Origin: Candidatus Omnitrophota bacterium
GTDB taxonomy: Bacteria > Omnitrophota > Gorgyraeia > Duberdicusellales > 4484-171
DNA: 64,000 bases
Direction: 5' to 3'
NCBI GenBank assembly: GCA_024231025.1
Contig: JAAEQW010000139.1
Coordinates: 7,851 to 71,850, forward strand
Shown piece by piece: positions 9,001 to 64,000 of this stretch. The position numbers and the translations under genes are program-made. The notes below the pieces were generated by a model. It was not told the origin of the DNA. It was given only the letters and a program-made list of their open reading frames with translations, and ran no database searches. How positions within the stretch are numbered: the first letter of the stretch is position 1; every line of letters begins with the position of its first letter.

Positions 9001-12000
9001 AGAGAAGATTGGCTTAAAGCGCCTCTTAATTACCGCTCTTAGTTTTCTCCTCTGATTAGAATCTGGCTGTGCGATCTCAACGATTGAGGTTGCCGGATAG
9101 GCTCCAGAGATCCACTCAGTAACATCTGCCTTAGAAATTGCTGCTTTTTTTAGGCCTTTTATTTGGGGTAGGTTATTTCTTATTGCATTGATTGCTGCTT
9201 TGGGATTATCGCAAGAAATAACGTTATCCAAAATAGTATTAATATCTTGAGAGGTTATTTGCGCTGCTTCGAGATCTTCAATAAATGAAAGTAAACCCTT
9301 ATACATCGTTTCGTTACTGTCTAACGAAAGCATTACCGCAAGAATATTGCCAAAAACATTCGCACTAACTTCATTGCGTTTAAGCGCATCCGTCAACCGT
9401 TTAAACTCTTTCCACTCTCCGGGCCAATAGACACAACGGTGCCAGCGAACACCAAAAGCCTCGAGTAAATCCTTAATGACTCTTACTTCCAAAAATCTAT
9501 ACCTCTTGTCAATATCATACAAAGCTCGTAACAGATAGGTAAATGACTCATGAATTGCTAAGCTGTGCGCTAAGCCCCCCTTGTATTGTTGCAATATATC
9601 TACTTTAGGTTTGGAAATCTTAAGGTAATGGCAATAAATTTCAGCGGGTTTAATAGTATAATTAACATTCTTATAGCCAAGAAATTTCAACGTATTCTGA
9701 AGCATCCGAGCGGTTAGGCGCGTGCCGTATATCGATTTATCCTTATCAATCAGCTCAATTAAAAGTCTGCAAACAGCCGCAGTTATACTTAGATCATCTG
9801 AAATAAGCTCACTGAAGCGCTGATCAATGTCTAACCCCAGTTTCCGATAATGCCAATAAAGCCAACAGCATCTGTCCATATATTCGACTTTGCAACCAAA
9901 CACCTCAACCAACACATCTTCTAAGCTAGCGGCGTTGATACCGGATCTTAAACTTTCTGACTGAAAGCCATTTGAATAAATACCTCTTAACTCACCAAGA
10001 GCAGCAAGAAAAGCTTTTAGTAAATTGTCTCTTGAAGAATAAGGACTAGCCTTAATGCGACTATAGCCTCTACGAATAAAATAAGGGCCAAGATAAGCAC
10101 CAAGCTGAGGAAATTTTGTTAGGTGTTTAGAAAACTTAACTTCCTGTACCTCTGGGTTACACTCAGATAATGGTTTTTCAAATTCTTTAAACAATGAAGG
10201 TAATTGATGATTCTCGGGAACACCCCTAACTAGTCTCATCCGCTGCCGCGTCCAAGGGTGCAACACTAAATAAGCTAAGGGTTTTTTTTGGGGAGTAGCT
10301 ACGGTTACAATCGCAAACGGTGCGGATTTATTTGAAGTAACCGCGGGAAGGTCTTGATCTATCTTAACCCTTCTTCCGGGGTCCAAACCAACAAAAAAAT
10401 CTTCTTCTTTAGGGATTTTCGTATTAAAGATATCATAAATATTTCCCTCCTTATCTTGCATCTGACGAGAAATTGTCGATAAGGCCAAATTATCGCCAAC
10501 TCGCTCATCGCAAGAACCAACATAATCCTCAGAAGAAAGATGCCCCATAACCGCATCTGTAAATTCACACAAATTACTACTATAAACTATTGACTGCCCG
10601 GCAATCTTTTCTTGCTTTCTTCTGATTATCTGAGCATGCCACCTACTTGTGCCGGGTTTTCTTTTGAGCAGAACGGTTTTTTTCTTCTTCCCATTTTTAA
10701 AGGCTACCCCTATTCTAAGTAATTGCCCCTCTTTAGAAAGACTATAGAACCCATCTGAAAATTTCCTATCAAAGTTAGCGCCAAGAACAATCTTAAATGA
10801 TTTTTTTAACTTAAGCAGGACATTATCATCATCTTTGGGCAAATTCAAATCGCCAAAATTAATTCCGTTTTCAATAAGAATTTGTGCCATCTCTAACTTA
10901 CTTATCCCTAAAGTTCTAGCAAAACTTCTAACAAAACACCGATTCTGACTAACCATATCCTTTAATACGTCCAAAGAACATCCGCCAATCAAAAATCCTT
11001 CCATATTTCTCTTTTTCACAGTCACCTCGTCCATAAGAGCAGTTAAAATGACTGAATCTTCTCGTGCTCTGGATGACACACAATAATATTTTTCTCCGGG
11101 AATTTTCCTAACATGCACCATATCAGATAGATGTCTTTTTTGCGCAAGCGCTACCGCCAATCCCATAAAATCAAAACAAGCTCTACCTTTATCAAAAGTT
11201 ACCGGCAAACACTCAAAACAAGAAACAATATCTGCAAAGGCAATCGGTAATTCTTGATAACGACAACCTTTTTCGATTACTCGAATGAGAGGGTGCTTAA
11301 TTCTAGCTCGAGTTATTGCCAAACTCTCATCAGGACCCCCACGCCTAGACGTTTGATATGCAATCCAAGCAATATTTTTACTAAATGAACCCCTTCCCAA
11401 AATATCTCTCGCCCATTTACCAATATCTCCATTCATCTTTTCAGCCCACCAATCAAAAGAACGAAGAACATTCTTCGTAGCTAATGCTATCTGATTTGCT
11501 CGGTAATAATCACGATTAGCGCGCAACCACGCTAAAGTTTGGCGATCCCCATCTTCTTGATTAAGCCCTCCAACATGACCAAATTCATCGCGCAAGGCAG
11601 TAACCAACAATCGATTAGCATCGGTGCCGGTAATTGAAAATAATTCTTCTAGGTATTTTTCATTTTCAATAAATATTGGATACAAGTAAATTTCGCCACC
11701 GGTATAGTGTGAAATTTTACGGCAGGCGCCAACGCGGGCGATATCTACGAGATTAGTATTGGGAGTAATCCAAATAATAATCTCGCCAAGCGAAGCTTTA
11801 AAAAGACGCTCATGCGCTTCTATCAATATATTCTTAAAAGTAGTACTCTGTTCAATAGTTAACGATCCCTCCAAAATACTGAAACAAGAAAGACCTGACC
11901 CCTTAAAGCTAACCAAAAGTTTTACCAGTGCCAAACCTTCATACCTAACCTGAGGTTCAATCGCAACTGCGTAATCAAATTCGTTATCACTCCTGTGTGC

Positions 12001-15000
12001 TGTGTTTGGTTTTTTTACTGGTTTTTTTTTTGATTTTTTAGCTTGAGCTCTAAATTCTTTTAACACTGCCTTAGCCATGTGTCTATCCTGCATACTCACA
12101 GGCAAACGAGCGGCAACGCTCTGCTGCCCAACCCACTCGGGTAATTTAGCACCACTAGATGGTTCTAGAAGATTATTTAAAGGAACCCACCCTACACGCC
12201 CTTGGCGAGAATAGCGCGCATGACAACAAGTTATGTCATCCTGGTCAAAAAGCAAATAGATATTATCAGTTGATAGCCCTCGCTCTTGGTTTTTCTCAAC
12301 AAGCGCTTCTAAGCTTAAGAAGATCTCGTCATTTCTACGACAAAAAGCAACACTCCCTATAATATCGACCGCCGCCACCGCTGCAACTTCTTGACCATTA
12401 GCCTCCGCCACAGCATCCATAAAAGAATTACCAATTAATCGCTCCTTTTTTTTATCTACCTGTTTTCGCATCACTGGAAGCGCATTTTTTGACTTTTCTG
12501 CCGTAGGCATTGGCAAAGCATTAACTAACTTTCTTTTACCAGCTAAAGCTGCCGCCATATGAATAAGAACTGCTTCCTTTTGTTGTTGCAAAGCGTTATT
12601 AAAGGCAAGCGATATATACAAAGTACCGTTTGAATCTTGATCATATAAAAATATCGCAGCAAAAAGCGATCTTTTCTTCGTTAAATACATCATTACCGGT
12701 AAAGAAGAAAGCTCCTCTAAAGCCTTGCGGATACCGCGGTCGTCAACGCTTGATATTAAACTATCGAAGGTACTATCTAGACGCCGCTGTTCACCTGGGT
12801 GCAATTTACGCTTCATCCTCAATTCACTTTCTATCTCTTGTTTTAGATTATGACTACTACTCGCCACATTAGTAAACTGATCAACAGGGCAAAAAACATA
12901 CGGCCGATCATTTCTTTTTTTAGGAATCAAACCACTGGCAGTAGTGGTTTGTCTTTCTTTGTGTTGGGATAAAAACTGATTAGTAATCTTTTCGGCATCT
13001 TCTTTGGCTATGCAACACGTTAAAAATATTAAAGTAGCCGCTAATCTAATGTTACTTGCTTCTTGATGTAAATGAATTTCTCCACTTCTGATTATCCCGT
13101 AAAAATAAATACTCTTGGTATAGTAGAATTCCATGGCACTGATACTTTTCAATAAATTTATGAGACAATCGCTTCCCTGTTTTTCTAAATATTCGTACGC
13201 TATTTTCATTGCCGCAGGAATATTGGAATTTTCTAATTCGTTACGACTCAAAACTTTTGCCCCACTGAGAGCAGCTTCAATTTTTTCTTGCGAAAAAAGC
13301 TGTTTCGCATCCCGAGGGCAATAAGCCACAACTATCAGCTGCTTTGGCCTTGCCCCAATCTCGCTACCGTCGACGATTGTTCCGTCTTCTATTGCTTTGG
13401 GCATATGGATCCAACTATCTCCCGGGGGAAGGCTTTCGAAGAATTCCGCATGAAAACGATTATCCCCTGCTCGCTCAACCCAAATATTTTCATGGTTTAA
13501 TTTTGCAAGATTTTTGTCAAACACCATCCATGTGCCATCGCCATCTTCATTAATTTCAGCAACAACAAAATCAGAAACAACTTCACTCATCTTTCGATTG
13601 GAATCTTTAGTCTTATCAAGATGAGCATTAAAAAGACAACAGCGCTTTAATTGGTCATAACTATGGCAAACAGCGATTTGATTTCTTCCTTTATCTTTAG
13701 CTTGGTAAAGCGCACGATCAGCATTTTCGCTAAGCGACAGGGCATTATCACCTAAAACAAGTTTGTTTTTAGAATCATACTGATAGATCTCATAAGCAGC
13801 CAAACCAACGCTCATCGTAATATTAACTGACTCACCCGCTCTTACAGGGATACCTTGCTTATCTAACGCATCTTTTATCCTACCTAGCACTGATCGAGCA
13901 ACTTCTTCAGTAGTGTCAGTTACCAGCAAAAAGAATTCATCACCACCCCAACGAGCAAAACGATCATTGGCACGAATATTTTTGCGTACTATATCTGAAA
14001 AAACAGTTAGAACTACGTCGCCGGCATTGTGCCCATAAGTGTCATTTATCCGTTTAAAATTGTCCAAATCGATTATAAATAAGAAAAGTCCCGGAGCCTC
14101 TTTCCTGCGTTGCGCCATCAACACCTCACTCGGAAAAAATTCCTTCTCAAAAGGTATCCGATTAAGTGCACCGGTTAAATGATCAGTAATTGACTGCTCT
14201 TTTAGCTGCTCATACAAGAAAAAGCTCCTCATTCTACCTGCCAAATGTTCTCTTTGCTGCAATATATCGTAATTAACCGCAGAAAGCGCCCAGATTACAC
14301 TGCGCACTTCTGTTTCGTTTCTACCAACAAGACAACGACGGCGAGGGCGCCTAGAACTTTTTGGATCATCCAGCCAATTATTAATTAAAAATGTTTCAAA
14401 CTTACCAAGGCGTTCACTGGGCAAAATCGAAAAAATCATTTCACCAACATCACCTTCGTAATCATGCTTATCTTCATTATAATTTACTGCAATTATATCG
14501 GGATTCTTGGGTAATTTCCTCCGATCATAAATATGTAAGCCAACCAGTGGTCTACCTTGGGCGTCATCATTAAACCACCAATTCCAACCAAGTTGCCCCT
14601 TTTTATCATATTCGCGCTCTTGCTTGCGAAGCCTCTTTGCAATACTTTTGCGCTGCTGGTGATCACAATTTAACCACTCTCTCACCACTGAAGAAAACCA
14701 CCCCTTTTCACTATGAGGATCGGCAATAATTGACTGATCATCGTTATCCTCGCTATCGCAATTACCTCCATCGTCAACCATAGCAAAGGCAGAATCACGC
14801 AAACCTTCAGTTTTCGCTTTATTAGCGAATCCACCACTAGCGAGATCTACAGTATAATTATAAGCTGAAGCTCGCTGGCCAATAAAGGCGTTAGTCACCG
14901 TGTGAGTTTCAACCTTCATTTTGTATTTCTCCACATTACGGCGCAGTTGTTTTTCGTCAACTTTACCTTTTCGATAAAGCTCCACTTGCCGATCAAAAAA

Positions 15001-18000
15001 CGAATCAATGTCTCGAATCATACCTGGTCTGGCACCAATAACCTGATAATGGCGATTTCTTTGCTGTTGGTTTTCTGCTTGCCTCACCCATTCCTGAATT
15101 GCAAATGGTATTAAAAGAATAAATGGCAGCGGAAACAACAAAACAACACCCAAAATATAAATAATAAAATGCAGCCCTAAATCAATGAGTCTTTTTAACG
15201 AAGCGTATGGTTTTGTTTCTTTCCAGTTTTGAGGAATTACCTTTAATGGAAAGGCAACTAATAAATATAATGGGTGACCCACTAAATGCAACAATTCATG
15301 AGGATACCTCAAAGTAAAAAACCACTTGTCTCTTTGGTTTTGCAGAGCTAGGCGATTAATCGTGACTCTTCTGCCGTCAAAATGACAGAATATCTGCTCT
15401 GATCCGCTTTTCTCAAAAGCCGTTCCCTCCCATTTCCCCAAGAGATACGATTCGCCCAATAAAATAAGGCCTATCGCAGCAAAAACCCCTATCACAGCAA
15501 AAACCCCCATCGCAGACTTAACAAACAATGCAAACCCAAGAGCAATTATAAGGCAGGTTGTTGCTGCCTGTCTTGCCCCCAAAGAAGAAATATTCTTTGA
15601 TTGGTCTTCGATTTTAGCGCCAATCCAAAAAGCAGAATCTCCTAATTGAAAAAGGGTCAACTCGCTATAACCGACAACATAACAAAAATAATTACCGGGA
15701 AGCTCACAATATATCTCTTGAAGTAAACCTGACGGTAATATGCGCCTGACCAATACATTGCTGATCGCTCGCACTCTCTCTTTGTCAAATTCAAAAACTT
15801 TAGTATCTTTATTTGGATCTAACCCCCAAACTAACTCCCCAACCAAATGGGCATATCCGCGATCAAATAGCTCTTCAATCAAAGAGTTCTGAGTAATTAA
15901 TTCAGTAACCGCAATAAACCGATCTATTTCCTCAGCACTAAGATTGCTCCTCATTAATCCAGACATTGAGCGTAGATCGCTCAACCTGTAAATTAAATTA
16001 ACTAACTTATCATTTACATTTTTTTTTGCCTCTTTAAAGAAAGGATAACCAAAACACTGGCCTAAAAGTTTGATGACCCCATCAATTGACTGCTTAAGTT
16101 TGTCGACTGATCCAATTGAAATTTCTATATTTTCCATGCGAGAACGTATCTTGCGACTATCTGGATAACGATCATCGACTACTTCAGACTCACTAGGTGG
16201 AATTGGATTCCCCAAAACCCGTAAATCAAAACCATCTCTAAAGCCTGAACGAGAACCAACCATTACGTTGTAATCCTCCTCATTGCTAATAATAACTACA
16301 AACCGTATCGCACCTGGATATTCGTGCCTTTCTGATACACTTACTAACAAGTCCAAAAACTCATTGCGGCCAAATTCCGATAATCCTGCCTCAACCACCA
16401 AAGGAATAATTATTTCCAGCTGGGTTACATCTTCGCCTTTATACCCCTCGCCTTCTACCTTAATCAAACCTTCTTCATCGATGGACACTGGTTGCTCCTT
16501 CTTGTTTTCTTCTTTTTGAAATGCTCGTTTATGCGAAAGTATGCTCCTAAGTAACCGTCTTTTATCGATACCGGTTAAATCAAGCGCAAGCGGTGAAGAA
16601 AATAAACACGCTCTTGATGACTGATCAACTAATGCCGCCGCAAAATCAAAAGGAGATTCAGTCAACACCAAGATACTTCTTGGTGACTCCACCTTACCCC
16701 ACACCGAAGCCATCCCCCCATCACCCCACTTATGTAGCTTTGCAATAACTACCAAGACATCTTCGTAAAGCGAATCTGCGCCGCCAACACGAATTTTCTT
16801 TTTTATCTCTGACAAACGCACCCAAGGTATTCCCGGATGGACTGAAAAGTATTCTGCGTGAAAATACCCTGATTCGTCAGTTGGTCGAACATAGACATTA
16901 TCTAAAGAAGATCCAAAATCCCTCCACAAAATATCTTTCAGGCAAGGATCGTAATCCACATAAACCCTACTCGAACCATCATTGGCGCATCTTAGCTCAA
17001 CTGTTGAATCAATTCCTAATCGTGGATCAGTAAAGTACTTTATAAAAGTGAATGCCGCCAAGCCACTAGCATCGCTAAAAGATTGGAAAAGACAACAGTT
17101 GTTGTTAAGGATAACGATCCACCCGGTAAGAATAAGTCTAGAAGCAACCTCGTCAGCTGATAAGACTTGCTCGTTGACTGCCCCTGCCTGCGCTAGCTCT
17201 TTCTCTAATAACTGCTCATAATCACGATCAAGCTCAAACTCAAAAGTGTCAATTGCAGTAAGAAAAATTACCAAAAGAAATGGATTTACTCGAAAATACT
17301 TGATACTATGCGCCAAAGCTTGCGAATGAGTAAAGCCATTAATAAATTCACACCATAAATCATGCAAAACAATATCATCAACAACAACACTAAAAAGGGG
17401 AGATTGATCATCACCCTCATCAAACACAGGCGCACGAGAGGCCGGAGTAGTTGATATTAGAAGTCTGCGGCTTAAACCTTCTCCAGCAATCTCAGCTAAT
17501 TTTCCACTGGGAGTTTTAAAAACAAACTTAACCTCTCCACTATCAACCAACCACTGAAACGAACCTCCTGATAAAATCTTACTAAAAGCAGCGCTGAAAT
17601 ATCTTTTGTAATTTTCTATTTCGCGATCAGTTGGCTCCTCAACCACCTCTCTTTTATCCTTGCCGGAGTAAGTTTTAGGCTTACAATTTACCGCTACAAT
17701 ACCTACCTTTTTTGCTTCCTGGATTACCGGCCAATCATGGAGCAGTCTTGCTATTTCTGCCTGGCGCGCAGCCATCGTATCTTCTAAAAGCTGATTTGTT
17801 TGCTTTTGTTCGCCTTCAAGCTGACGTATCTTCTCAGCAAGTTCTGATACCATAAACTCACTTACTCTGATTTTTCGATCTAACTCCCGCAATGGCAAAG
17901 ATGATTGTTCTGTCAATATTTTTTTGTGTTTAGTTAACAACTGATCATGATGGGTCTTTAAGCTCGTGAGTTTTAGACGCATTCGCCCTATTAACACCCT

Positions 18001-21000
18001 TTGCTTATGTTGTTTTGTTTTAATTCGGGTAATGGTTGGATTAAATTTCTTCTGTATGAATTTTTCGGCTTCCCTTAACGCTCTTCTTTCTTGTGCCAAC
18101 TTAAATGATTTCTTTTCTTCGGCTTTCCTTAACGCCTTTCTTTCTTGTGCCAACTTAAATGATCTCTTTTTTTCGGTTTCCCTTAACACTCTTCTTTCTT
18201 GCGCCAACTTAACCTCAATAACTCTTTTCTCCTCACTTAAACGATCAAACTCAACTTTTAGCGGCGCAACAAAACCTAATTCATCCCTTAAAGACGCCTG
18301 CATTTCTTTTAAGCTGGCAATTTCCATCAGACGAAATTCATGATCCACTTGATAAGATTCTAAATCTTCTATCGCCCTAAGCCATCCATCTTTGTAAGAG
18401 GCGCTATTTCTTACGTTTCTTTGAGTGAGCCTTAATTCTTCTTTTTTCTTGTTAAAGCCAATTTCATCAAAGCCAAAGGCCTGAGCCAACCTTAAAGAAG
18501 AGACAATCTCCTCTAGTTTTCTGTTGTAATCAAGAATCTCCTCTTCTTTACTTTCCAGTTTCTGATCAATCGCTTTGAGGCGCGAAATACGTTTTACTTT
18601 AGCTTGGATCAATTTTTCACCCTCTTGTTCTCCAGACAATAGCGACTCTTCCGGCTTCAGATTAGCCTCCTCCTTTAAGGCCTGATTTAGAGGTTCTTGC
18701 CGTGTCCGTATCGCAAGCGAACACTCACTAATTGCAAAGCGTAAATTTTCTAATTTCTTCTCTGTCTTCGCTAATAAAATTTCGCGGGTAAGCGCCTGTT
18801 GTTTGCTAAAATGTTTTTCTCGTTTGAATTTATCTAAAATCTGTTCAGCTAAAAACAACTTCTCATTAATCGAAGAAATAAGTTTTTTCTTATCACTGAT
18901 ATCTAAAGAAAGTTTAATAATTCTTTCCTGGATAGATTGCAAAGCGCGATCAATCTGTTCTTTCGCCTGTTTGACTGCAACAATCTTTTCTTCAATTGCA
19001 TTTAATACCTCTTTCGTCTGGACAATCAACATTTCCTGCTCTTGTAAACGTTGATAAATTGTACTGTCAAGCTTTTTGGAATGCATCTGAAAACCTAAAC
19101 TATTGTGAGCAGCAACGAACTGTGCTTTTTTATGCGCGCAATACGCGTTAGCTTTTTTCGCTCTTTCTGTTATCAAGGATATTTCTTGCTCAAGAAAAGA
19201 GTTTCTTATTCGAAAATTTCTAAACGGCTGCTCCAGCGCTACAAACTTGTCAACAGCAACTTCTACTGGTTTATCCTTAACTCGCATATACAGCTGTCTA
19301 ACATTTCGAGCTGTTTTTTGTATTTCTTCTTCAAGTAAAAGCAAACGATTCATCGCCGCTTGTTCTCGAAGGGCAAAAATCCTACTATAATGTTCGCGTC
19401 TTAAAGAAGCCCATTTTTGCTCTAAGGTGGAAATAGATTTTTTAATTTCGGATACTTTTCGAAGTTGGAGCTCCTCTTCGATAATCGCAGCCACCTCGAT
19501 AGTGACAAGATACCATTGCCTAATCGACTCGATATCCGGCTTACTGCAAATTTCCCCTCTCCATATGGCATTTTCGGACGCTAATTCATATCTTTCTTGC
19601 CTTAGAAGGCGTCTCCATCGCATAAACTCTGGACGATAGCGATAACTTTCAACAATAAAACTAAAATGATCAAGATCCCTTTTTCTCTTTTCTAATCCTT
19701 GTAAAACTTTTCCATTTGTTTGGTCCTTTAAGCTTCGTTTTCTTGCTTCTACCAAAGTTAAATTTCGTTCTTTAATACTCCTAAAAGCTAAATTATCTCT
19801 TTCTTGCGTCAATTGTCGCTCACACGCAATTAATGGTTCTTTAAAATCTTTAAACGCAGCAATACTTTCTTTCAATCTTAATCGTTTATCCTCTAAAATT
19901 CGCAACCGCTCTTGCGCCTGCACTAGAAGTTCACTATCCGCTCGCAATTCTTGCTCTAATCGCCAAGCACGCAAAGCTTTGTATTTATTTTCTAAATTTT
20001 CTCTGATTGCCGCTGCCCTGATTTTGGCTTTTTGCCAAGACAACTCCTTTTCTTCACATGCCATATAAGTCATAGAACAAGCGTCTAGACGAGCTTTACC
20101 AATCATTAACGCTCTCTTATTCTTTTTGCGATCGGCTAACGCAGCTTGGTGATTTTTTTGATCTTTTTGCAATCGAATAAGATCTTGCTCGATTTGAAGT
20201 TGTGATTCTAGCTGCCTGTCTTGTTCTTTTTTCAACTGAGCGCGTAACTGCTCGAGTTCAGAGAGAAGTTCCCCCTCGCTTATTTTTTTATTACTAAGAG
20301 TAATAACTTCTGATTTTTCTGTACTGATGGTACCATTTAACATTTTCAAGAAGTCATCAACTTCCTGATGCAATCGCCTTGATTCATCAACCTCGTGTTG
20401 AATCTGAGGCATATCATTCGCAAAGGAAGCTAACCTTTTTCTTTCTGCCTCAAGGCGTTCGGTAAGCTGCCTAACCCTGTTGGAAATTTCTCTTTGCTTA
20501 TACTCTCGCTGCCTGCAAACAGATTCAAACTGTTTTTGTTTTTCATTTTCTATTTTAGAAACTTGCTGATCTACTTCTAACCGCTGGCGAGCTATTTGCA
20601 GGTCTTGATACTGTTCGCGAAGGATTAATTCTTTTCGACTTGCGTGTCCAAGTACGTCAATAATAGTTTCTAGATCATTTTGTTTTTTTACCCGATTTTC
20701 TTTAAGGGAATTAACCTCCGAAACAAGAGCAGGCAAAACTGCTTCTTGTTCCTCCAACGCCTGAATCTGTTTATTAATTTTTTCTAATCGACGCCCTGTT
20801 TCTGCTAACTTCTCTTCACTCGATAACAGTGATTGCCTTTTAATTTCAACGTCTAGCCTTTCAATTTCCTTTGTAACTATATCCAACCTTTGAGCGGAAG
20901 GAGCCAAGTGCGCTAAACGTTCTGTTAACCCATTCTTGCGCGCAATAAGAGAGTCCACTCTACTGTACGATTGACTAACCTCAGCCATCCTCTCTGCTAT

Positions 21001-24000
21001 ACCATGCGGATCATTGGCATCAGCTAGGTAGTATTCATAGTGTTCATGAGTAAGAGTTTGTTGATCAAAGTTTAAATTTTCTGGGGTGATGGTTTCTAAA
21101 TTATTAAGGGGATTTGTTGTTGTGATATAAAGGATGGGGCCGGTATCAGAATCATCAATTATTGAGCCAAAGTCATCAACAGCGTTTTCTACCTGCATTG
21201 CCTTGGCTGCAGTAATTTGTAGTGGCGGACCTCTGCCGTTATAGCCTGCACTAGCAAGTGTTCTCTTTATTTGCGCGCCTTCTGCGACCAGGCGCTCATC
21301 TACCCAAGGGATACTTATCTCGACTACCCTGCCTAATTGGCTAGCGCTTCTTATGATCTTCTGAATCTCTTCCTTTGTGTGCCTTCCGTTTGAACCGCGA
21401 GGGCCGGTTGATTGCGGAAAAGTTTTCAATCCAAATGTATGTTTTTTTTCTTGATCAAAAGGACTAGCGGTTATCGAAGAAATTAGAAAAGGGGTTGTGG
21501 CGACAGGGAGCCTACAGCCACGGAAAGAGGCTACCACCGCCATCCACAACCTTTTATTTATTATACTACTAAATAATCCGGTTGTGTAGAAGATAAGTCG
21601 CCTACCCGCAAAAAAGACTATAAAAGCTGCAACTAAAATAGTGAAAATTTTTATACTAAAAGAAGCAACTGCAATCATTGCCAAAACGCCCAACGGCGCA
21701 AACCCATATTGATTAGCGGATGGGCCGCTCGGTTTTTTACGAATAGCTTTTAGTTTTTTGGTAATCATAAGTCTCGATAAAGGTTTTACACAAGTAGCTT
21801 TAATATTACCAGAAATATCCGAATCTATTCTAACGTTAGGTAATTTGGCAGTAAGCAAGATGTATGCTTGGGGATCAATTTTTAAAATTTCTCGCACTAT
21901 ATAAAATCTCATAAAGGGTGTTACCTTTACTGCAACGAAAATTGCATCAAAATTGCCGCCTTTAAATACTTCAATTGCACTAGATCTGTCTGTTGCCTTC
22001 TCCGCACTTTCAAGTGCACAAACAACTTCAATTGAATTATCTATTCTCGCTACTAATCTTTTGAATCTATCTAAAAAATTTCGGTTTTCATCGATAACTA
22101 GTATCCTTACTGAAACATCAGATGGCGGCAAACTTTCATTAAGTGAACCGCTTAATCCGTTCGTCTCATGAAGATAACCCCCGAATCTCTTCCATGCAAG
22201 AACGACTAACGCAAGAACAATACCAACTCCAGATGCAATCAGTATCCCAAGATCCCCATTTGCAATAAGAGGTATCAAAGGAGAAGCAGTCGCAATCGTT
22301 GCAAAAACACCTAACGGCGCAAATCCATGTTGCTTAGTAACTTGTTTTTCTGATGATTTTTCAGTAATTGTTTTAATTTCTCTCTCAAGCGCTCTCTCTT
22401 TGCTTTTTAAAATCTTTTTAGCCTCACGGATTTTATTCCCATATTCTAATATTTCACCTCTTAAATTAATCTTTGCTTGCTTTTCGATTTCACCTGTAGA
22501 ATTGCTTAACCGTTTTGCTGCTTTTTTACGAGATGCCTCTATACCCTCGATATCGCTTTTCAACGCAGTAATTTCGCGGTTTAAATTTGAAATGCTCTCA
22601 TTATCTTTAGTTACTGCGGCCAACTGACCTCTCAGTTCTTCTAGATGAGAATTTGAATCAATATCTTCTAATGCATACCCCGCGATTTTCAATTGCTTAG
22701 AGGTATTTTGCTCGCGGTCAAACGAACTCTGGTAATCACTAAAGGCTCTTTGAGCCTGGGTGGCAGCTGAGTATTGATTAATAAACTTAAGAGTATCGCT
22801 TCCTAATTTTCCTTCTTGTAGATGTTGCAAATATTGACGCGCGCTTTTCAGTTCAGCTTCTACTTCTTTAATTAACTCAAAAGTCGCAGAAGCTTCACTA
22901 TTGAGAATATCAATACGGCTATCAACTTGCGTAATCTCTCTATTTAAGCGTTCGACCTCGCGCTCGATGCCTTTTTTCTCTCTTAAAAGTTCTCTACTAC
23001 CGGCATCAATTTTCTCTAATTCTTCATACAGCTTTTTTTCTTCAATTTTTCTTAACTCTTCGCTTTTACTTGCGATCTCATTGCAAAGACTATTTACTCT
23101 ATTTGCTATTGTGCTTTCACCGAATGAAGAAAAACTATCATTAACAATTACCCGCATTATTGAAAAATCACCTCCAACATCTTTAGTAGTCTCAATTAAT
23201 AAACTGGTCATTTCTCTTTGTAAGCGTATGCGTTCATTTTCAAAATTCAATAATTGCTGGTTAGTTTTCTTCTGCTCTTCTTTAATGGACTCGCTAAGAG
23301 ATCCGATACCGTCTAACGTCAACATATTGCCCATAGGATCTTTTAATTTCCCCTTGATGCTTGCCACTCGGTCAATGAGCGGTTGCAACTTATCAAAAGG
23401 AGCGCTATCGCCGTGTTCCTTTCTAAGTGCTGCTTCTTCGTTTTCAGCCGTTTCGAGATCGGCAATAAGCTGGCGGCATCTAGCCTCCACTTTACTTAGA
23501 TTATTGGCAGTAGTCGAAAGTTTTTCGAGCTCTTCTTGCAACTGGATCTTCCTTTGCTTTAGAGAATCCATTTCCCCAAGTAATTCTTCTACTTTTTCTC
23601 GTTGAAAATTTGGATAAGTCAGGCACAATTCATCCACAACAGATTCATTTTTTAACACTCTAACCTCAGCCGCTAACTCGTGTTCAGATCTTTCATATTG
23701 GTCGAGATTGTACAGAAATTGAGCATTTTGAAAAACTAAACCCATTATCTCTTCGGTAACATCAGGATTTTCGTTAATCAACTTGATAAATTTTTTCCAA
23801 AGCGAAAGTTCACTATTGAGCTGTGCCCTTCTTTGCTCCTGTAATGTGAAAGATACCAGGGCTGCTTTTTCATTGGCGGGCAAATTATTCTGCAATTTTG
23901 GTAATTTTGTGAGTGCATCTTCTAAATCAAAAAGTTCTGTTTTTAATCGTTTTAAGACATTCTGATATTCATTTATTTCGTCAGCAAGTAAAAGCGCTTT

Positions 24001-27000
24001 CCCATCACAGATTTCCTTACGATGCTTAGAAAATTCTAGAATTTTTTCATCGAAACTGTCAATCTTTTGCCGATTTTCTCTGCGCTGGGTCGCCAATCTT
24101 GTTTTGCTCTCTTCCGCATTAGTTAATCGATCTTTCGCATTGCCTAGTGCATTTGTTTCTTGCCTGAAACCTTCTTGAAGTTCACTTACATAACTGCCTA
24201 AAGCATCAACTAAAGCTGCCTGCGCAGAGGATAAATCTTCTTTCACCTGATGAGAATCGCTTAAAGCAATTATCGTTTTCTCTAAATCACTTTTCTGATT
24301 AAGCAACTCACTCATTGCCTGTTTGATGCGCTGGCGTTGTTGATTATGTTGATGCAATGATAATTCAACCATACCATCTAAATTCTGTTTAACCTTTCTT
24401 GCCTGGTCTTCAGTATCTGATCTTTGCCTGCGTAATGTGTCTAATTGGTCGTTAAGCTTCTGTGCATCTTCTTTGGCTTTTTCTTTTTTCGCGTTAAGAT
24501 CATTTATCTGCCCGATTGTTAAAGATAAATCCTCTAATTCACTATCAATTGAAGGTACAGCTTCTAAATAATCGTTAACCTTTGACTGTAATGCTGTGGC
24601 ACGTTCACCATCAACCTTTAACTGCTGATTGTTTTCTTCGATATCACTCTCTGCCCTCTTTAAAGATCCTTTTAATTGTTCCTCTTCCTCATTAATGCGA
24701 TCAATCGTATCATCATGGGAGCGTTTCATTTCGAGCGTATCGGCATTGGCCCTTTCTATTAAGGTCTTATTGCTCTTAATCATCTCATTAAGCTCTTTTC
24801 TTATATTTTCCAATTGCTGGCTCTTGTCATCTAGAACCGCTCTTTGCTTTATAAATTTATTTTCTAACTTCTCTGTCGCATCAATTGCAACTAAAGCATT
24901 GCGGCAAACAGCAAACGCGTCTTCATCCATTGATTGCGCAGATGTATTTTCAAGATTTTCTAATCCCGCTTGCGCAAGCAAAACATCTCGTCTTAAAATT
25001 TCTAATTGCGATAACTTTTCCTCGCTCTCATTAACTATAGGCTCAAAAAGATCTGCCTGAATCTTACGTAAATCAGTAATTTTTTCACTTACATCAAGTA
25101 ACTCTCTCTCATTATCCCTTAATAATTTTTCTGCAGCTGTTAATTCTACTTGCAGTGAAGTTCGCAAAGTGCTAATTTCATTTTGTTCTTTTTGAGCAGA
25201 TACCAAATCGCTTTGCAAATTCAACTGACACGCTTGAGTTAAGGCAGGAAACTCATCTGCAACATTTTGCAGATGCTTTATTCTTTTTTGTCGTAGTTCA
25301 CACTCTAAGGCAGATAATGCAACTTTCTCTTCTTTAGTGCGTGCGGCCGTTAAACTTTTCTGATAATCATCTTCAAGGAGAAAGACCGTAGTGGTTTGCT
25401 CCGGTATTTTTACGCTTATCCCTTTTAACTCTTCGTTTTCAGCTAACAAGCGTTCACTCTGGGAGCCTTGAATCACTCGTGACATATCATCTACGCGCAT
25501 CTCTAAATCAACTAAACTCTCTAGCCTACTTGTGTATTGTTTATTTAATTGGTCTCTTTCTTCTTGCTTTGGGTCTAATTCGTCTTGGGCTTTTTTAAGT
25601 GCCTCTTCCAAAGGAGGCAGGCTTTCTTTTAGCTCTTGGCGAGTGCAAGTGTTTTTGCTTAATCTAGTTGCAATCGTCTCCCAGGCATTCACTAAAAATA
25701 ATACGGGGTCTTCGTCTGAGAGGTCTTTTTGATCATTCTTAATTTCATCGAATAAAAGTGCCCTTTTATCTTCTAATTTTTTCACTTCTTCATTTGAGCC
25801 TTTTATTTTATTTCCAACATCATTTACTTTTTCCTCGGCCTCTAAAAAGCTGTCCTCTATTGGAGATTCTTCTTTTTTGATTTTCTCTAGCGCAGTTTCA
25901 TTTTTTCTAAGTTGATTATTTTCATTGCTGAGCCTTTCCCTTAAAGAAGCTAAATCACTTTCATAACCACCTAAAATGCTTTTTAGCTCAGTTAATTTTT
26001 CTTCTAATTTATTCACTTCTTTTTGAGCTAATTGCTGCCAAGTTGAACAATCAAAATCTGCTGCTTGTGCGTCTTTGGCGCTTACCCCTATTGTTCCTAA
26101 TAGTTGCGATTGTTCCATTTTCAATCCTTCAATTTCCCTTTCTTTTTCCGCTGCTGTTACGACCTTGCGACGTCCGAATGCAGAAAGGCGCGGCGTAGAC
26201 CGCACTGACTGCCTTCTCTCAGCAATAATTAAATTATCATGTTCGTTACGTGCGATAAAAAGAGACTTTTCTATTTCTGATTTTCGAATAAGCAAAGCCT
26301 CTAAGTCCGGTGTTTGGCCTACTTGCCTACAACTATCGCGCAAAATTGCCGCTTCTTTCTCGCTTTGTTCTAACTTTTGCGTTATTTCTTCATATCCTTC
26401 GGTACATCTTTCTAGCTTTCTCTGTGCTAAAACAAACCCTTCCTCCTTTTGCTCAATTACTTCCGTTAATTGGTTGCGTTGTATTTCAAGTTGACGCCAT
26501 CGACTGCTACCCTGATCCTGGCCCATCAAAATTGTTTCTTGAAGGGCAATATTTTCTCGGATCTGATTAATTTTTGTTATTTTTTTACCTCTCTCTCCTT
26601 TTTTCGCATTAAGTGCACCCTTTAAATTCGTCAAATCACTTTCTTTTGGAACAAGTTTTGCCTCATTATCTCTAATTTTTTCATCAAGACTGCCAATATC
26701 TCCTTCGGTAGCCGCGACATCGCCTTCAATACTCTTTAGCTGCTCGTTTAGTTTTTCTACGCCATTATCTTCATCTTTTAAAAACGGTTTCTCAGCAGTC
26801 ATACTTTTTATTTCCAATGATAACCTTTTTCGCTCCTCTAATAGAAATCTATTTCGCGCTTTTGCTGATTCAACTTCCTCGCTATCGGAATCTAAATTAG
26901 CTGCCCGCAATCTATCCTCTTCCAATATATCGCTGGTTCTATTAAATTCCCCTATCGTTCGATTTAACTCCTCGAAATCAGCAATTTTTTCTCGCAATCC

Positions 27001-30000
27001 CCATCCTTTAAGCTGCAACTCGCTAAGCTCGCTAAGCTTAAGTGCGCTTTTTGCCTCATCTTCACTGATTATTGCAGATATCTCTTTCACTTCGCTATCA
27101 AGAGGATCATGATCGTTCTGAAGATTATCTATCTCATCATTAAGCTGCGACATGGTATCTTCTATTTTGCCCACACTTTCGCAATTTAGATCTATCTCAC
27201 GAGATAAAGATTGCACCTTTCTTTTTAGCTCCTCAAGACTCTCATCAACGCCCTCTCGTTGCTCTTGGTTTTCTTTTAGACTTTCATTTATTTCTTTATA
27301 AGTTTGCTTAGCTGCATTTAAGTCTTCGTTTGCCTTTGTTAATGCTTTTGTGTCTTTAGCAACTTCAAGCTCCTGCGTTCGAAGCACCAATACACTCTTA
27401 GCTATTTTCAAATCTTCATTGGTTTTATTAATTTCTTCCTCTTTGTTTTGTTCTTCTCTGCTTATCTCATCTTCCAAAAATGTAATACCTTGTTGCGTTT
27501 CACTGAGAAGCCCTTCTCCGCGTGCAATAGCCTCTTCGTGAGATTTTCGTTCATTTTTTACATCGCTACGCTCTGTGCCAAGACTTATTAATCGCGCTGT
27601 TGCCGCGGTGTATTCATCATCTTCATTTGATAACTCTTCCCTCAGAGAATTTAAGGAACGCTCGATCTCTTCTGCGGCAGAAATAAACTTTTCAATTTTT
27701 TTAACCCGACCTAAATCATCAATTGTACGTTGTTTGTTATTTATATCTGTTTCTATTTGATTTCGCGCTTCTTCTTTTTGTTCAATATCAAGATCTAAGA
27801 GCCTAAGATCATTTTCATCGGTTTCTTTTTGCTTAAGCATTTCAGAAAAATTTGCCTTAACAGTTTCTAGATCTTGCTTCAAAGTTGCCAAAGCTTCTAG
27901 ACGCGCTGGAGTAACCGTTTGCGTTAATTCGCTGTGCCTAACATTTAGTTGTTCTAGCTTTTGAGAAGCCGCCGTTAATTCATTGTCTGATGTTTCAAAC
28001 GCTAGCCTCAATTCTCTTAATTCTTCCCTGGCTCGGTTTAACAACGCCTCACCATCTGCTTGCTCTTTTTCTAAAACCACTAGCCCATCTTGCCAAACTT
28101 TACGTTGCCTTAACTCAGCAATCTCTTCTATTTTAGCGCGAACTTTATTTGACCTTTCTGTTAGTGTTAGTGTTAGCGAGTGCGCCTTCTGCTCTAATTC
28201 TGCACGCTTCTTCTTAGCAATATTTTTTTGATGTTTGCGATCAGCAGCTGCTAGATTAGAAAAAGAAATTTCAAAATCGCATTCACCCTTGACGTCAGTT
28301 TTTAGCTTGGCTATTTCTGAGAAAGGTAAATTGCTCATAGACTTCTCATAATCGGTTTTGATTTTCGCAACCTCTTTTTCTATTCTATCAATTTCATCAG
28401 TAAGTTCTTTTTCTGAATTCCAAACAGTAAGATATTCTTGTTCGGCATTCGATTTGTCCGTAGCTTGCTGATCGCGCATCGTTTCTATTGACCGTTCGTT
28501 TTTAGCAACAGTATCGTGTTTTGATAATGCTGTTTGACGTAATTCTGCATTAAGAATTTTTACAGCTTGACTTGTTCCTTCGTTTTCAGCTTTTGCGGTG
28601 CTAATTTGATTTTCGCAGTCAGAAAGACTTTCTCTGGATAAACCCAAATTATTTTGAAGTGTTTGGCGTTCTGCAGTTAAGCTTTCAATACGCGTTTCGA
28701 CACCTTTTGGATCGCCAAGTTTTTTGGTATCGTCACCAAGGGAAGATATAGATCGCAACTTATCGCTCACGTCTTTGTCAAAAGAAGTAATTTGCTCTTT
28801 TAGACCTTCACTCTGATGTTCTAATCTCCTCTGATGATCACCTAGAAAAATGCAATTTTCATCAACAATCGGGAAACGTTCCCGCTGAACACGTTCTAGA
28901 TAATCTTTAACCATACCCGCTTGTTTGATTGCCTCACTATTTTCTGCCGCATTGAAAGATGCAACTTGCCCAACGAGAAAGCTTTCCATAACAAAAATTC
29001 TTCTGGAAACATTTCGATATAATTGATAAAGACTTTCACGTAAATCGTATAAGCTATTTTCATCTAAAATACCATCTGCCACTACCGCGCGATACGCTTT
29101 CATCTCACGGGCATGATTGGAGAGTAATTCTTTCAAATCCCCGATTACACTTTCATCCAATTGGCTCAATTGTGAAACTTCAATGTCTAGCCCTTCTTCT
29201 TCGGTAGCTTCTTCTAAGGTAAAGTCCCCTTCCTCGAAGTCATCAGCGCCTAGGGCATCTTTTTCTAATTCAAAGTCCCCTGGTGCAAAGTCGTCAGCGC
29301 TTAGAACATCTTCTCCTAATTGAAAGTCCCCTTCCTCGAAGTCGTCAACAGTTAGTGTTTGGCCGCTTTCTTCTTCATTATCGTTACCACCATTGCTGCC
29401 TAGAATTCCTAAGATTCCACCACCCAAACAAATTGTAACAGCAAGTGCTAAAGAGCTTGGGGTTGTTTCTTGTGAAAAATAATCTGCTACCTTCTGAAAG
29501 TCAAAATATGGCAATATATTACTAACAAAGAAGCTGACTGCTTTTACAGCCATAAACACAAGCGGAATAATTGCAAATGGAATAAGGCCACACAATGGCA
29601 TCGGCTTAGTTCTATTTAATAATTCGCCAACAACGTTATAAAAATTCTCACCTTTAATAATTGTTCTTGCAAATAATTCCCAAGCCTCTTCGCTATTGCC
29701 AAAAAGCCTTAGCGTTATCCCGGCAAATAATTCTCCCTCATAACTGGAAAAAGTTGCTTTTATGGCATGCGACTTACCTTGACGCTGGCTTACAAGTTCA
29801 AGGGTAGTTCTAGATAAAGCGCCTTCTTTTGCCGCAAGAATTACATCCAACGCAATACCGTTTAATAGCATTTGTCCGATATCTTTCCCTTGGTTAAAAG
29901 CTTTCAACCTAGGGGCATCTTCTGCACTGTATGCGCCGTCACTATCTGCGTCAAAGCCACCATTTGTGTATTTATCAGCCAAACGTAACCTCGCATAATA

Positions 30001-63996: not shown

Positions 63997-64000
63997 AGGG

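Follow-up and report, generated by a model that had tools for sequence, protein, structure and literature searches.

The minus strand is the sense strand of the 64-kb window (the whole stretch of DNA analysed, 64,000 nucleotides), and on it a single reading frame of 21,333 codons runs without a stop from one end to the other (Table 1). The other five frames hold 779–2,498 stops each and, beyond two shadow ORFs, no other ORF of at least 150 aa occurs in the window, which lies within a gene of more than 64 kb. PRK, cytidylate kinase, HAD, PHP and GGDEF domains lie in this same frame on both sides of a module of two rods, with five P-loop kinase-like sites and an intact GGDEF motif; the enzymes on either side of the module are of cytoplasmic type. 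A SecA_DEAD domain was looked for in the window and not found. The module lies where a coil-forming region rich in E, K, Q, L and R had been predicted, on the predicted strand: the proposed extent (nt 28,900–17,850, i.e., aa ~11,700–15,383) matches the coil limits at aa 11,765 (nt 28,707) and 15,419 (nt 17,743). The coil-bearing part of the gene totals about 3,650 codons. Upstream, a hydrophobic pair about 230 residues before the start of rod 1 is followed by an acidic linker, whose repeat is a 51-nt unit present 2.5 times (nt 29,221–29,347; the enclosing 100-aa block, aa 11,501–11,600, has a net charge of −25), and by a helical lead-in without sustained heptad signal.

Table 1. Features of the rod module and its host frame, in the order of translation.
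Feature	Position (nt)	Strand	Residues (aa)	Basis or content
Host reading frame	1–64,000	−		Codons complete from nt 63,999 on; both window ends open
Hydrophobic (TM-like) pair upstream of the rod module	29,392–29,607	−	11,465–11,536	Kyte-Doolittle 19-aa peaks 2.29 and 2.07
Acidic Gly/Asp/Glu/Phe linker	29,170–29,391	−	11,537–11,610	17-aa repeat DDFxxGDFxLxxD
Helical lead-in before rod 1	28,708–29,169	−	11,611–11,764	Model helices; COILS P<0.5
Rod 1	22,327–28,707	−	11,765–13,891	19 segments; 1,621 of the 2,127 aa spanned are coiled coil
Hydrophobic unit 1	22,171–22,326	−	13,892–13,943	Hydropathy, GFAPLGV lead-in, helix-break-helix model
Degenerate receiver-like (CheY-like) domain	21,742–22,107	−	13,965–14,086	PDB CheY matches, hhalign
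Hydrophobic unit 2	21,583–21,705	−	14,099–14,139	Hydropathy, GFAPLGV lead-in
Domain duplicated downstream, copy 1	20,986–21,444	−	14,186–14,338	Self-comparison of the frame
Rod 2	17,743–20,853	−	14,383–15,419	11 segments; 588 of the 1,037 aa spanned are coiled coil

Both rods are true heptad-type, alpha-helical coiled-coil sequence; composition, COILS-type scores and periodicity all bear out this part of the original prediction. The residues E, K, Q, L and R make up 0.501 of the rods versus 0.347 of the frame elsewhere (200-aa blocks outside the rods: mean 0.346, sd 0.041, maximum 0.455), while Pro (1.11 versus 3.27%) and Gly (2.65 versus 5.94%) are scarcer. With a COILS matrix after Lupas et al. 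(1991), controlled on just four proteins, residues scoring P>0.9 form a fraction of 0.55 of rod 1 (local shuffles 0.08), 0.40 of rod 2 (local shuffles 0.10) and 0.00 of the remaining ~18,000 aa of the frame. The hydrophobic periodicity has its maximum at exactly 3.5 residues, 2–3.6 times above composition-preserving shuffles (power 0.75 in rod 1 and 0.45 in rod 2; shuffles 0.21; two control regions elsewhere in the frame ~0.25–0.31), and a separate a/d score agrees. Because the real values exceed the shuffled ones, the heptad order goes beyond composition alone, and a period of 3.5 rather than 3.6–3.67 indicates a left-handed coiled coil, not apolipoprotein-type 11/3 amphipathic helices. Core position a is L34/I17/V10% and d is L35/I11/A10%, positions b, c, e, f and g are polar, and no window is of the single-alpha-helix (SAH) type.

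Although the rods exist and have a length that is unusual in a prokaryote-type protein, the almost uninterrupted coil that had been proposed is not what they form: each is a chain of ~30–350-residue segments, with short Pro/Gly-containing or non-heptad linkers and frequent heptad-frame shifts in between. Thirty of the 33 coil segments predicted in the whole frame fall in the two rods, and they hold 2,209 coil residues, not about 3,000. Rod 1 is coil over 76% of its span, with longest segments of 347 aa (11,967–12,313, the longest overall) and 218 aa (13,038–13,255), and rod 2 over 57%, with a longest segment of 73 aa; the segment medians are 61 and 50 aa, respectively. Gaps between segments within the rods measure 3–153 aa, and the same heptad frame is kept for just 29–108 aa at once before it shifts. 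The two features named beforehand as counting against a long rod part ways here, in that the coils are indeed short and discontinuous whereas proline is not abundant (38 residues). In an AlphaFold2 model of aa 11,601–12,800, 74% of residues are helical, with helices up to 94 aa broken by 11 non-helical stretches of 8–74 aa (both 3D models obtained are of low confidence, pLDDT 49 and 42). Laid end to end, the segments would give a contour of about 241 + 87 nm (each coil residue contributing 0.1485 nm), and the whole spans 316 + 154 nm; a rod of hundreds of nanometres stands only as a summed contour of ~330 nm (coil) or ~470 nm (span) if the segments are collinear, and the single continuous rod of ~0.4 µm is not upheld, the segments being discontinuous (median ~55 aa). 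Their complex, non-repetitive sequence argues against the rods being slippage filler; just two small tandem repeats occur in the region, among them a basic 18-aa unit in rod 2 (KLAQERRxLRExEKKxSF, 2.8 copies, nt 18,064–18,212), and blastp found no internal repeat of any length in the rods.

Between the rods lies a 491-aa hub (aa 13,892–14,382) composed, in order, of a hydrophobic unit, a receiver-like domain, a second hydrophobic unit and a duplicated domain. An interruption of the coil by a TM-REC-TM unit and one conserved domain had been foreseen and is real, but the receiver identity is weakly supported: the sequence suggests a degenerate CheY-like pseudo-receiver, with CheY chains as its best PDB sequence matches (E 1e-3 to 4e-3), CheY or response regulators among 10 of the 12 listed PDB matches, and a co-linear hhalign alignment (P = 0.0014, probability 17.5%), yet with no Pfam match even at E ≤ 1. 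Ala 14,023 occupies the phospho-acceptor Asp position, whereas the signature Thr and Lys are retained. Copy 1 of the duplicated domain is 64–69% identical to aa 19,019–19,169/19,195 of the same frame, 4,800 residues downstream; alternating helices and strands are modelled for it at low confidence, and searches of Pfam, PDB and sequence collections gave no match.

Hydrophobic unit 1 consists of two hydrophobic helices with NGD between them and, on the model, is probably a helical hairpin. Units 1 and 2 have Lys/Arg flanking both sides and a short neutral turn, and their common GFAPLGV lead-in marks them as paralogous. Rod 1 is flanked by hydrophobic units at both ends, and rod 2 starts ~240 residues past unit 2, after the duplicated domain. 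Membrane passes per unit were read from hydropathy and flanking charges; in published work on other giant proteins, transmembrane predictors disagree and often put most domains outside the cell. If the units are membrane-inserted, the rod ends are pinned at the membrane, and a membrane-proximal strut or folded-back bundle is favoured over a free projecting fibre. Of the earlier suggestion of a stalk, tether or fibre that holds the N-terminal enzymes far from GGDEF, the stalk and fibre are weakened by these membrane-type units and the tether or spacer is still plausible.

No homologue of the rods was detectable in any collection searched, and no rod paralog occurs elsewhere in the 64-kb frame. 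SMC, Rad50 and “helix-rich” NCBIfam profiles align to the rods via their coil arms only (SMC to rod 1 at 89.5 bits, SMC_prok_B E = 1.2e-25, against a family cut-off of 567 bits; Rad50 E = 7.5e-9), and no ATPase head (Walker A/B), hinge or zinc-hook motif flanks the rods. The best Foldseek matches of the low-confidence model, all at E ≥ 0.1, are three-helix bundles, BAR domains, alpha-pore-forming toxin subunits and spectrin. Nothing similar to the rods was found in public data, and the host protein is best read as an orphan multi-enzyme giant.

We propose, with a probability of about 0.55, that the region is a jointed coiled-coil spacer or scaffold within a giant multi-domain protein with membrane-type hydrophobic units. 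These units would form helical hairpins of 38–50 residues, fastening the chain to the inner membrane like staples without transport of the large soluble parts across it. In such a topology, the rods and the nucleotide-dependent kinase, HAD, GGDEF and receiver-like domains would share one side of the membrane, probably the cytoplasmic one. Bounded at both ends, rod 1 would not be a free 0.4-µm stalk; it may either run along the membrane as a flexible strut or fold back, onto itself or onto rod 2.

Fold-back as the defining architecture, like that of SMC, Rad50 or MukB arms, is a reading we regard as unlikely. Here the chain would reverse at the membrane hub or at a break in mid-rod, with rod 1 folded on itself and/or packed, by its acidic C-terminal half, antiparallel to basic rod 2, giving a ~100–160 nm projection with the hub as its base. 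The net charges are opposite (−107, with 25 Pro, for the wider rod 1 block, aa 11,620–13,890; +41, with 13 Pro, for the wider rod 2 block, aa 14,346–15,420), parallel in-register pairing of g with e' charges is not enriched (z = 0.19), Pro/Gly-containing breaks interrupt rod 1 close to its midpoint (around aa 12,560–12,930), and SMC and Rad50 arms are the best profile similarity; were the hub membrane-embedded, both rods would emerge from the membrane near each other and head in opposite directions. However, the rods are of unequal length, the mirror symmetry of coil interruptions does not exceed chance (best r = 0.52, a value that 41% of permutations reach; r = 0.30 between rod 2 and the mirror image of rod 1), the SMC score is far below its cut-off, and the head, hinge and hook motifs are missing.

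One continuous extended coil of ~3,000 residues and ~0.4 µm, acting as a stalk or fibre between the N-terminal enzymes and the GGDEF part, appears improbable. The collinear span, the low proline content (1.1%) and Pro-free stretches of 335, 268 and 218 aa favour it, and stutters and skips are compatible with long coiled coils in nature, but it must accommodate 30 segments, the brief heptad frames, the non-helical stretches in the model, membrane-type units at both ends of rod 1 and a hub mid-way. We likewise doubt that the region consists of short antiparallel helical bundles strung together in the manner of spectrin or Staphylococcus Ebh, forming a shorter, thicker and more elastic rod rather than a supercoil. 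Short heptad-frame blocks and segments (medians 50–61 aa) and the three-helix and spectrin matches point this way; against it, those matches are non-significant, no internal repeat was found, the rod charge spectra have no long-range periodicity up to 120 residues, and helices of 60–94 aa and segments of 218–347 aa exceed a spectrin-type repeat. That the region is compositionally biased filler with no particular structural role, or arose as an artefact of assembly or annotation, is scarcely credible: missing homologues and functional annotation would fit, but the frame is open across 64 kb, heptad phasing is far above composition-matched shuffles, the sequence is complex and GC content is uniform with the flanks.

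A jointed spacer or scaffold resembles several known systems in part. SMC arms are ~350 aa long, about one-third to one-sixth of the rods here. In a 2005 survey (PMC1322226), SMC/Rad50/SbcC/MukB arms were the longest prokaryotic coiled coils, and HMW2 and Helicobacter coiled-coil candidates were mentioned. The rods share with such arms a heptad-based, broken coil of two-strand-type core composition and possibly an antiparallel fold-back, and SMC and Rad50 are the sole curated family profiles that match them, but they sit inside a giant frame bounded by hydrophobic units. Bacterial cytoskeletal proteins (crescentin, FilP, Scy, Helicobacter Ccrps, Mycoplasma HMW2) also have long heptad rods with structural or scaffolding roles near the membrane, yet are free-standing, filament-assembling proteins of up to ~1,300–1,800 aa; the rods described here are non-homologous internal modules of a far larger polypeptide and lack the type of long-range charge periodicity that guides lateral assembly. 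Golgins such as giantin and the plant protein PICC are eukaryotic membrane-anchored tethers with kilo-residue, interrupted coils, jointed and flexible like those here. These tethers have one anchored end, with the other reaching out for vesicle capture, whereas rod 1 is bounded at both ends, shows no homology and belongs to a bacterial-type multi-enzyme giant.

A further comparison is with the Omnitrophota giants (“Archaeovorin” and the multi-enzyme metabolic-cluster giants; bioRxiv 10.1101/2023.11.21.568195, 10.64898/2026.06.07.730766), with which the host frame shares its size (>21,000 aa), many scattered TM-like segments and very divergent kinase, HAD, GGDEF and receiver-type domains along a mostly unannotated polypeptide, although it has no demonstrable sequence relationship to public collections and no SecA_DEAD in the window. 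The word “coiled” is absent from both papers, where scaffolds are HEAT, TPR, NHL and Adaptin repeats and beta-helices. In the present giant, the likely job of rod 1, as a strut or folded back, would be structural, fixing the distance and geometry of the N-terminal, enzyme-rich part relative to the GGDEF-bearing C-terminal part, and it may also offer an oligomerisation surface.

Along its whole length the window is read by a single frame on the minus strand (offset 1), which holds 21,333 codons and no stop, as against 779-2,498 stops in each of the remaining five frames. This frame is open at both window ends, which means that the window represents a fragment of a giant gene of more than 64 kb; conventional ORFs are nearly absent because one reading frame fills the window. 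Only two ORFs of at least 150 aa lie outside the giant frame, and one of these, a plus-strand ORF of 234 aa inside rod 1, is probably no gene but a shadow ORF, produced because coiled-coil codons rich in GAA/AAG/CAG/CTG have few stops in antisense. GC content is ~0.37-0.42 in each 2-kb window, and the sense strand has more G than C throughout (plus-strand GC skew about -0.07 to -0.32). We number residues downward along the window (residue j = nt 63,999-3(j-1)), and in this numbering nt 28,900-17,850, where the original prediction placed one rod, corresponds to residues ~11,700-15,383 of the giant protein. Here we treat this region as two rods separated by a hub that contains two hydrophobic units, a receiver-like domain, and a domain found twice in the frame.

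Positions of the rods and of other features of the giant reading frame
Feature	Residues	Window position (nt)	Strand	Remarks
PHP domain	~4,104-4,167		minus	beside P-loop kinase sites
Five Walker A (P-loop) sites	4,380; 7,180; 7,630; 7,878; 8,249	~39,250-50,860	minus	
HAD hydrolase domain	~8,794-8,988		minus	beside P-loop kinase sites
Cluster of TM-like segments	9,059-9,697	34,900-36,830	minus	upstream of rods
Hydrophobic pair	11,465-11,536		minus	upstream of rod 1; followed by acidic DDFxxGDF-repeat linker, then helical lead-in
Acidic linker	11,537-11,610	29,170-29,391	minus	between hydrophobic pair and rod 1
Rod 1	11,765-13,891	28,707-22,327	minus	
234-aa ORF		22,901-23,605	plus	inside rod 1
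Hub	13,892-14,382		minus	between rods
Hydrophobic unit 1 (50 residues)	13,894-13,943	22,171-22,326	minus	immediately after rod 1
Receiver-like domain	13,965-14,086		minus	in hub
Hydrophobic unit 2 (42 residues)	14,098-14,139	21,583-21,705	minus	in hub
Duplicated domain, copy 1	14,186-14,338	20,986-21,444	minus	shortly after hydrophobic segment
Rod 2	14,383-15,419	20,853-17,743	minus	
Basic tandem repeat	~15,262-15,311	18,064-18,212	minus	near end of rod 2
Further hydrophobic units	16,142-16,305		minus	between rod 2 and GGDEF domain
GGDEF domain	16,604-16,774		minus	motif intact
Duplicated domain, copy 2	19,019-19,169/19,195	6,493-6,945	minus	shortly after hydrophobic segment

On the grounds of composition, core residues, and periodicity, the rods are assigned from sequence to the alpha-helical coiled-coil class, with a putative partner helix. 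The residues E, K, Q, L, and R together make up 50.1% of the two rods vs. 34.7% of the other 17,333 residues (200-aa blocks outside the rods: mean 34.6%, sd 4.1, maximum 45.5), while proline (1.11 vs. 3.27%) and glycine (2.65 vs. 5.94%) are scarcer than elsewhere. Residue order, and not just these proportions, carries the signal, since a simple a/d core score exceeds that of shuffles that preserve local composition. In a COILS-type scan, whose matrix was re-typed after Lupas et al. (1991) and whose controls behaved as expected of them (tropomyosin and GCN4 100% coil; CheY and lysozyme 0%), coil at P>0.9 covered 55% of rod 1 (shuffles 8%) and 40% of rod 2 (shuffles 10%) but 0% of the other ~18,000 residues. 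The interval from residue 11,765 to 15,419 contains 30 of the 33 coil segments predicted in the whole frame. Hydrophobic periodicity is maximal at exactly 3.5 residues (power 0.75 in rod 1 and 0.45 in rod 2 vs. 0.21 in shuffles) and drops at 3.6 and 3.67. Elsewhere in the frame, a pair of control stretches gave only the weak, broad 3.5-3.67 signal typical of ordinary helices. The predicted core is dominated by aliphatic residues (a = L34/I17/V10%, d = L35/I11/A10%), though these figures are partly circular as the register came from the predictor itself. An AlphaFold2 monomer model of residues 11,601-12,800 is 74% helix, with helices of at most 94 residues; both AlphaFold2 monomer models obtained were of low three-dimensional confidence (pLDDT 49.4 for this one and 41.6 for the other), and we use their secondary structure alone.

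Other helical classes were considered and rejected. The rod period of 3.5, rather than 3.6-3.67, rules out apolipoprotein-type 11/3 amphipathic helices, and a single alpha-helix of the ER/K type was rejected on finding no 40-aa window with E+K+R of at least 60% and almost no hydrophobic seam. The sole stretch of the rods to come close to the composition of a single alpha-helix, under relaxed criteria, is a basic tandem repeat of 18 aa (KLAQERRxLRExEKKxSF; 54-nt unit, 2.8 copies, 88% matches) located toward the end of rod 2.

The original prediction had read this region as an almost uninterrupted heptad repeat of ~3,000 residues. Its coiled-coil sequence is real and correctly located, but it is distributed over 30 segments, the longest of 347 aa, and the coil total is 2,209 residues, i.e., about 2,200 rather than 3,000. 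Specifically, rod 1 comprises 19 segments (1,621 of 2,127 residues; median 61 aa) and rod 2 comprises 11 (588 of 1,037 residues; median 50 aa). At 0.1485 nm per residue, the two longest segments (347 and 218 residues) would measure about 51 and 32 nm, and the end-to-end contour, counting coil residues only, would be about 330 nm. Even within the longest segments the heptad frame stays constant for just 29-108 residues, the rod regions contain 38 prolines (25 and 13), and eleven non-helical stretches, each 8-74 residues long, interrupt the model of residues 11,601-12,800. Coil prediction, which had been proposed as the check on the claim, therefore cut both ways when run with the COILS-type scan: the coils are discontinuous, which speaks against it, and proline is low (1.11%), which speaks for it. 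A chain of jointed struts describes the rods better, with no sign of straightness.

A hydropathy scan identified ~20 TM-like segments in the frame and placed hydrophobic units at the rod starts and ends. Most of these units span 38-50 residues; the two in the hub are flanked by Lys/Arg on both sides, and the turn of unit 1 (NGD) is short and neutral. Both hub units open with the motif Q[HY]GFAPLGV, which is found nowhere else in the 21,333 residues and which marks them as paralogous, and this sequence likeness suggests that the hub originated when a membrane-insertion unit was duplicated. Upstream of rod 1, the acidic linker consists of a 17-aa repeat (DDF-E/A-x-GDF-x-L-x-x-D; 51-nt tandem unit, 2.5 copies), and the 100-aa block enclosing it has a net charge of -25.

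Of the TM-REC-TM unit first proposed to interrupt the rod, the two hydrophobic units stand, while the domain between them is putatively CheY-like and lacks both a REC match in Pfam (none even at E<=1) and the acceptor Asp. Among its 12 listed matches in PDB sequences, 10 were CheY/response regulators (E 1e-3 to 1, best ~1e-3), and in a profile comparison hhalign aligned the domain co-linearly with five canonical receivers across 113 columns (probability 17.5%, P=0.0014). In CheY alignments, Ala 14,023 occupies the position of the phospho-acceptor Asp at the end of beta-3, while the Thr and Lys signature positions are retained. Given the alanine at the acceptor site and the weak matches, the predicted REC domain is at best a degenerate pseudo-receiver. 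The "one conserved domain" of the same proposal proved to be conserved as a duplicate within the frame, without a match outside it. Its two copies, each of ~150 aa, share 64-69% identity and the invariant motifs GSNGRHT, VDDFGSIIDDSD, GPILYITT, LETITPENLNF, TLTHEHxEYYLAD, and DPHG, and a low-confidence model suggests alternating helices and strands. Neither Pfam nor PDB sequences matched this domain, and none of the contig collections (genome, metagenome, viral) did; for the domain and the post-rod region, PDB and Pfam searches returned just noise.

Homologue searches were likewise negative across the collections covered. Within the 21,333-residue frame the rods have no paralog, blastp found no internal HSPs inside them, and their DNA has just two small tandem repeats; the absence of a paralog and the scarcity of repeats indicate that the rods are complex, unique sequence and not products of slippage. 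Word-indexed protein searches of 5.8 billion clusters returned 0 matches with the hub, the kinase cluster, or the best 501-aa coil as queries, and a 901-aa query over three Walker A sites found no similar protein in that collection at E<=1e-5. Exhaustive phmmer with residues 13,701-14,900 (receiver-like domain included) against 1.84 billion representatives gave 0 matches at E<=0.001. An exact 43-mer was absent from genome and metagenome contig collections, degenerate-pattern scans derived from the two-copy domain alignment found nothing in genome, metagenome, or viral contigs, and tblastn found nothing in plasmid and phage records. Searched against PDB sequences, the rods returned solely a 95-aa PLVAP coiled coil (E=0.0012), and Foldseek with both low-confidence models gave no match below E 0.07.

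Among curated family profiles, only those of SMC, Rad50, an archaeal SMC-related protein, and a Mycoplasma "helix-rich" family matched the rods; each did so at coil-arm positions alone, with a score far short of its cut-off (e.g., SMC_prok_B 89.5 bits vs. a cut-off of 567, Rad50 34 vs. 700). The rods have no SMC/Rad50 head context, the closest Walker A site being at residue 8,249; residues 11,000-16,500 contain no CxxC, the motif of a hook between the arms, and the single LSGG (residue 15,476) has no Walker B context. As heads, hinge or hook, and an above-cut-off score are all absent, we reject membership in the SMC/Rad50/MukB group, to which the likeness is in the coil arms only. In size, too, the rods stand apart: a 2005 survey of 22 proteomes recorded no bacterial protein with a predicted coiled-coil domain >400 aa, SMC-type arms being the longest (PMC1322226), and against that benchmark the ~2,200-residue coil module is exceptional.

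The frame as a whole carries few Pfam domains, and the bulk of the polypeptide is without annotation. N-terminal of the rods are PHP, PRK/uridine-kinase, cytidylate-kinase, other P-loop kinase-like, and HAD hydrolase domains, and C-terminal of them is a single GGDEF domain. The five Walker A sites are alike in form (e.g., QPAGTxVLLxGxxAAGKS) and lie in PRK/uridine-kinase-like, cytidylate-kinase-like, and related kinase domains; together with the PHP and HAD domains, these form a nucleotide-metabolism-type enzyme array within one polypeptide. Large internal duplications (28-76% identity) form a mosaic across residues 1-8,750 (window ~37,750-63,999); they include a ~600-aa module that recurs at residues 2-596, 1,934-2,369, 3,053-3,598, 5,095-5,618, and 6,570-7,150 (33-54% identity) and further pairs at 61-76% identity (4,501-4,796 with 7,305-7,598; 4,797-4,929 with 8,089-8,221). 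These sequence relationships suggest that segmental duplication enlarged the giant gene, while the rods are without a copy. Between this mosaic and the rods, ~ten clustered TM-like segments have no Pfam match; this part of the giant protein may be a transporter-like or membrane-core domain.

In length (at least 21,333 aa vs. a 10,000 aa criterion), in its ~20 TM-like segments, and in the many different enzyme domains that it carries (PHP, PRK, cytidylate kinase, P-loop kinase, HAD, and GGDEF), the host frame is similar to the giant multi-enzyme proteins described from Omnitrophota. The SecA_DEAD domain that features in those giants is absent from the 64-kb window, past both ends of which the gene extends, and protein-collection searches found no sequence homologue for three different pieces of the frame that would bear on membership.

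We consider it somewhat better than even (probability roughly 0.55) that the rods serve as a jointed, membrane-stapled structural spacer or scaffold, a role favored by the hydrophobic bracketing of the rods and by the hairpin topology proposed here. Hydropathy and flanking charges, read by the positive-inside rule, suggest that the hydrophobic units are helical hairpins that would staple the chain into the membrane and leave the flanking kilo-residue segments uncrossed over it. With such stapling, the rods would share one side of the membrane with the receiver-like domain and with the domains that depend on nucleotides of the cytoplasm (kinases, GGDEF). If pinned at both ends, rod 1 cannot be a free stalk, and it would instead be a flexible strut along the membrane or be folded back. 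The rods would hold the enzyme-rich N-terminal part and the C-terminal part with GGDEF at a set distance and in a set geometry, and they may mediate self-association.

Other arrangements fare less well. The opposite net charges of the rods (-107 in rod 1 vs. +41 in rod 2) would suit an SMC-like fold-back, as would the g-e' charge pairs, which proved neutral (z=0.19) when examined for a parallel in-register homodimer; however, the rods differ two-fold in length and the mirror symmetry of their coil interruptions is at chance level (p~0.41), and we regard a fold-back as unlikely. The single straight 0.4-micrometre rod of the original prediction is at odds with both segmentation and anchoring and is now quite improbable; what survives of that proposal is a long helical spacer, probably jointed and membrane-stapled rather than a continuous fibre. 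Equally hard to credit are spectrin/Ebh-type helical-bundle repeats: the rods show no ~100-130 aa tandem repeats or internal HSPs and their charge spectra have no long-range periodicity, tests that very divergent repeats would escape, and their helices are too long. The same spectra contain no myosin- or IF-like long-range charge repeat above the 95% null that would support lateral filament assembly. Compositional filler or artefact is scarcely believable in the face of phased heptads and an intact 64-kb frame.

Functionally, a jointed, membrane-stapled spacer is closest, by analogy, to membrane skeletons and to long coiled-coil tethers with a membrane anchor (e.g., golgins); in eukaryotic tethers, rulers, and membrane skeletons, long coiled coils are a standard building device. 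Coiled-coil spacers being thus familiar, it is the size, context, and orphan sequence of this one that are unusual, while its partner, topology, and function are what we infer. A bolder and doubtful extension is a membrane-stapled cortical skeleton or molecular ruler, the largest prokaryote-type coiled-coil module yet seen, with the rods pairing along the inner membrane face and the hub as a joint. Here acidic rod 1 and basic rod 2 would pair mutually or with the copies of neighboring molecules, and a polypeptide of >21,000 residues would have its dozens of enzyme modules fixed in spatial order. If true, this would be a bacterial counterpart of spectrin/golgin scaffolds, independently evolved and without relatives in current databases.

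For studying the cellular layout of a >21,000-residue protein, residues 11,967-12,313 offer a concrete, expressible piece. The scaffolds described for Omnitrophota giants are HEAT, TPR, NHL, and Adaptin repeats and beta-helices, and coiled coils are unmentioned in both papers on them (bioRxiv 10.1101/2023.11.21.568195; 10.64898/2026.06.07.730766); the feature may therefore have gone unnoticed in the unannotated "dark matter" that giant genes contain. A ~2,200-residue coil module set between membrane-type segments within a giant multi-enzyme polypeptide would indicate that such proteins possess dedicated architectural elements besides enzymes and repeats.
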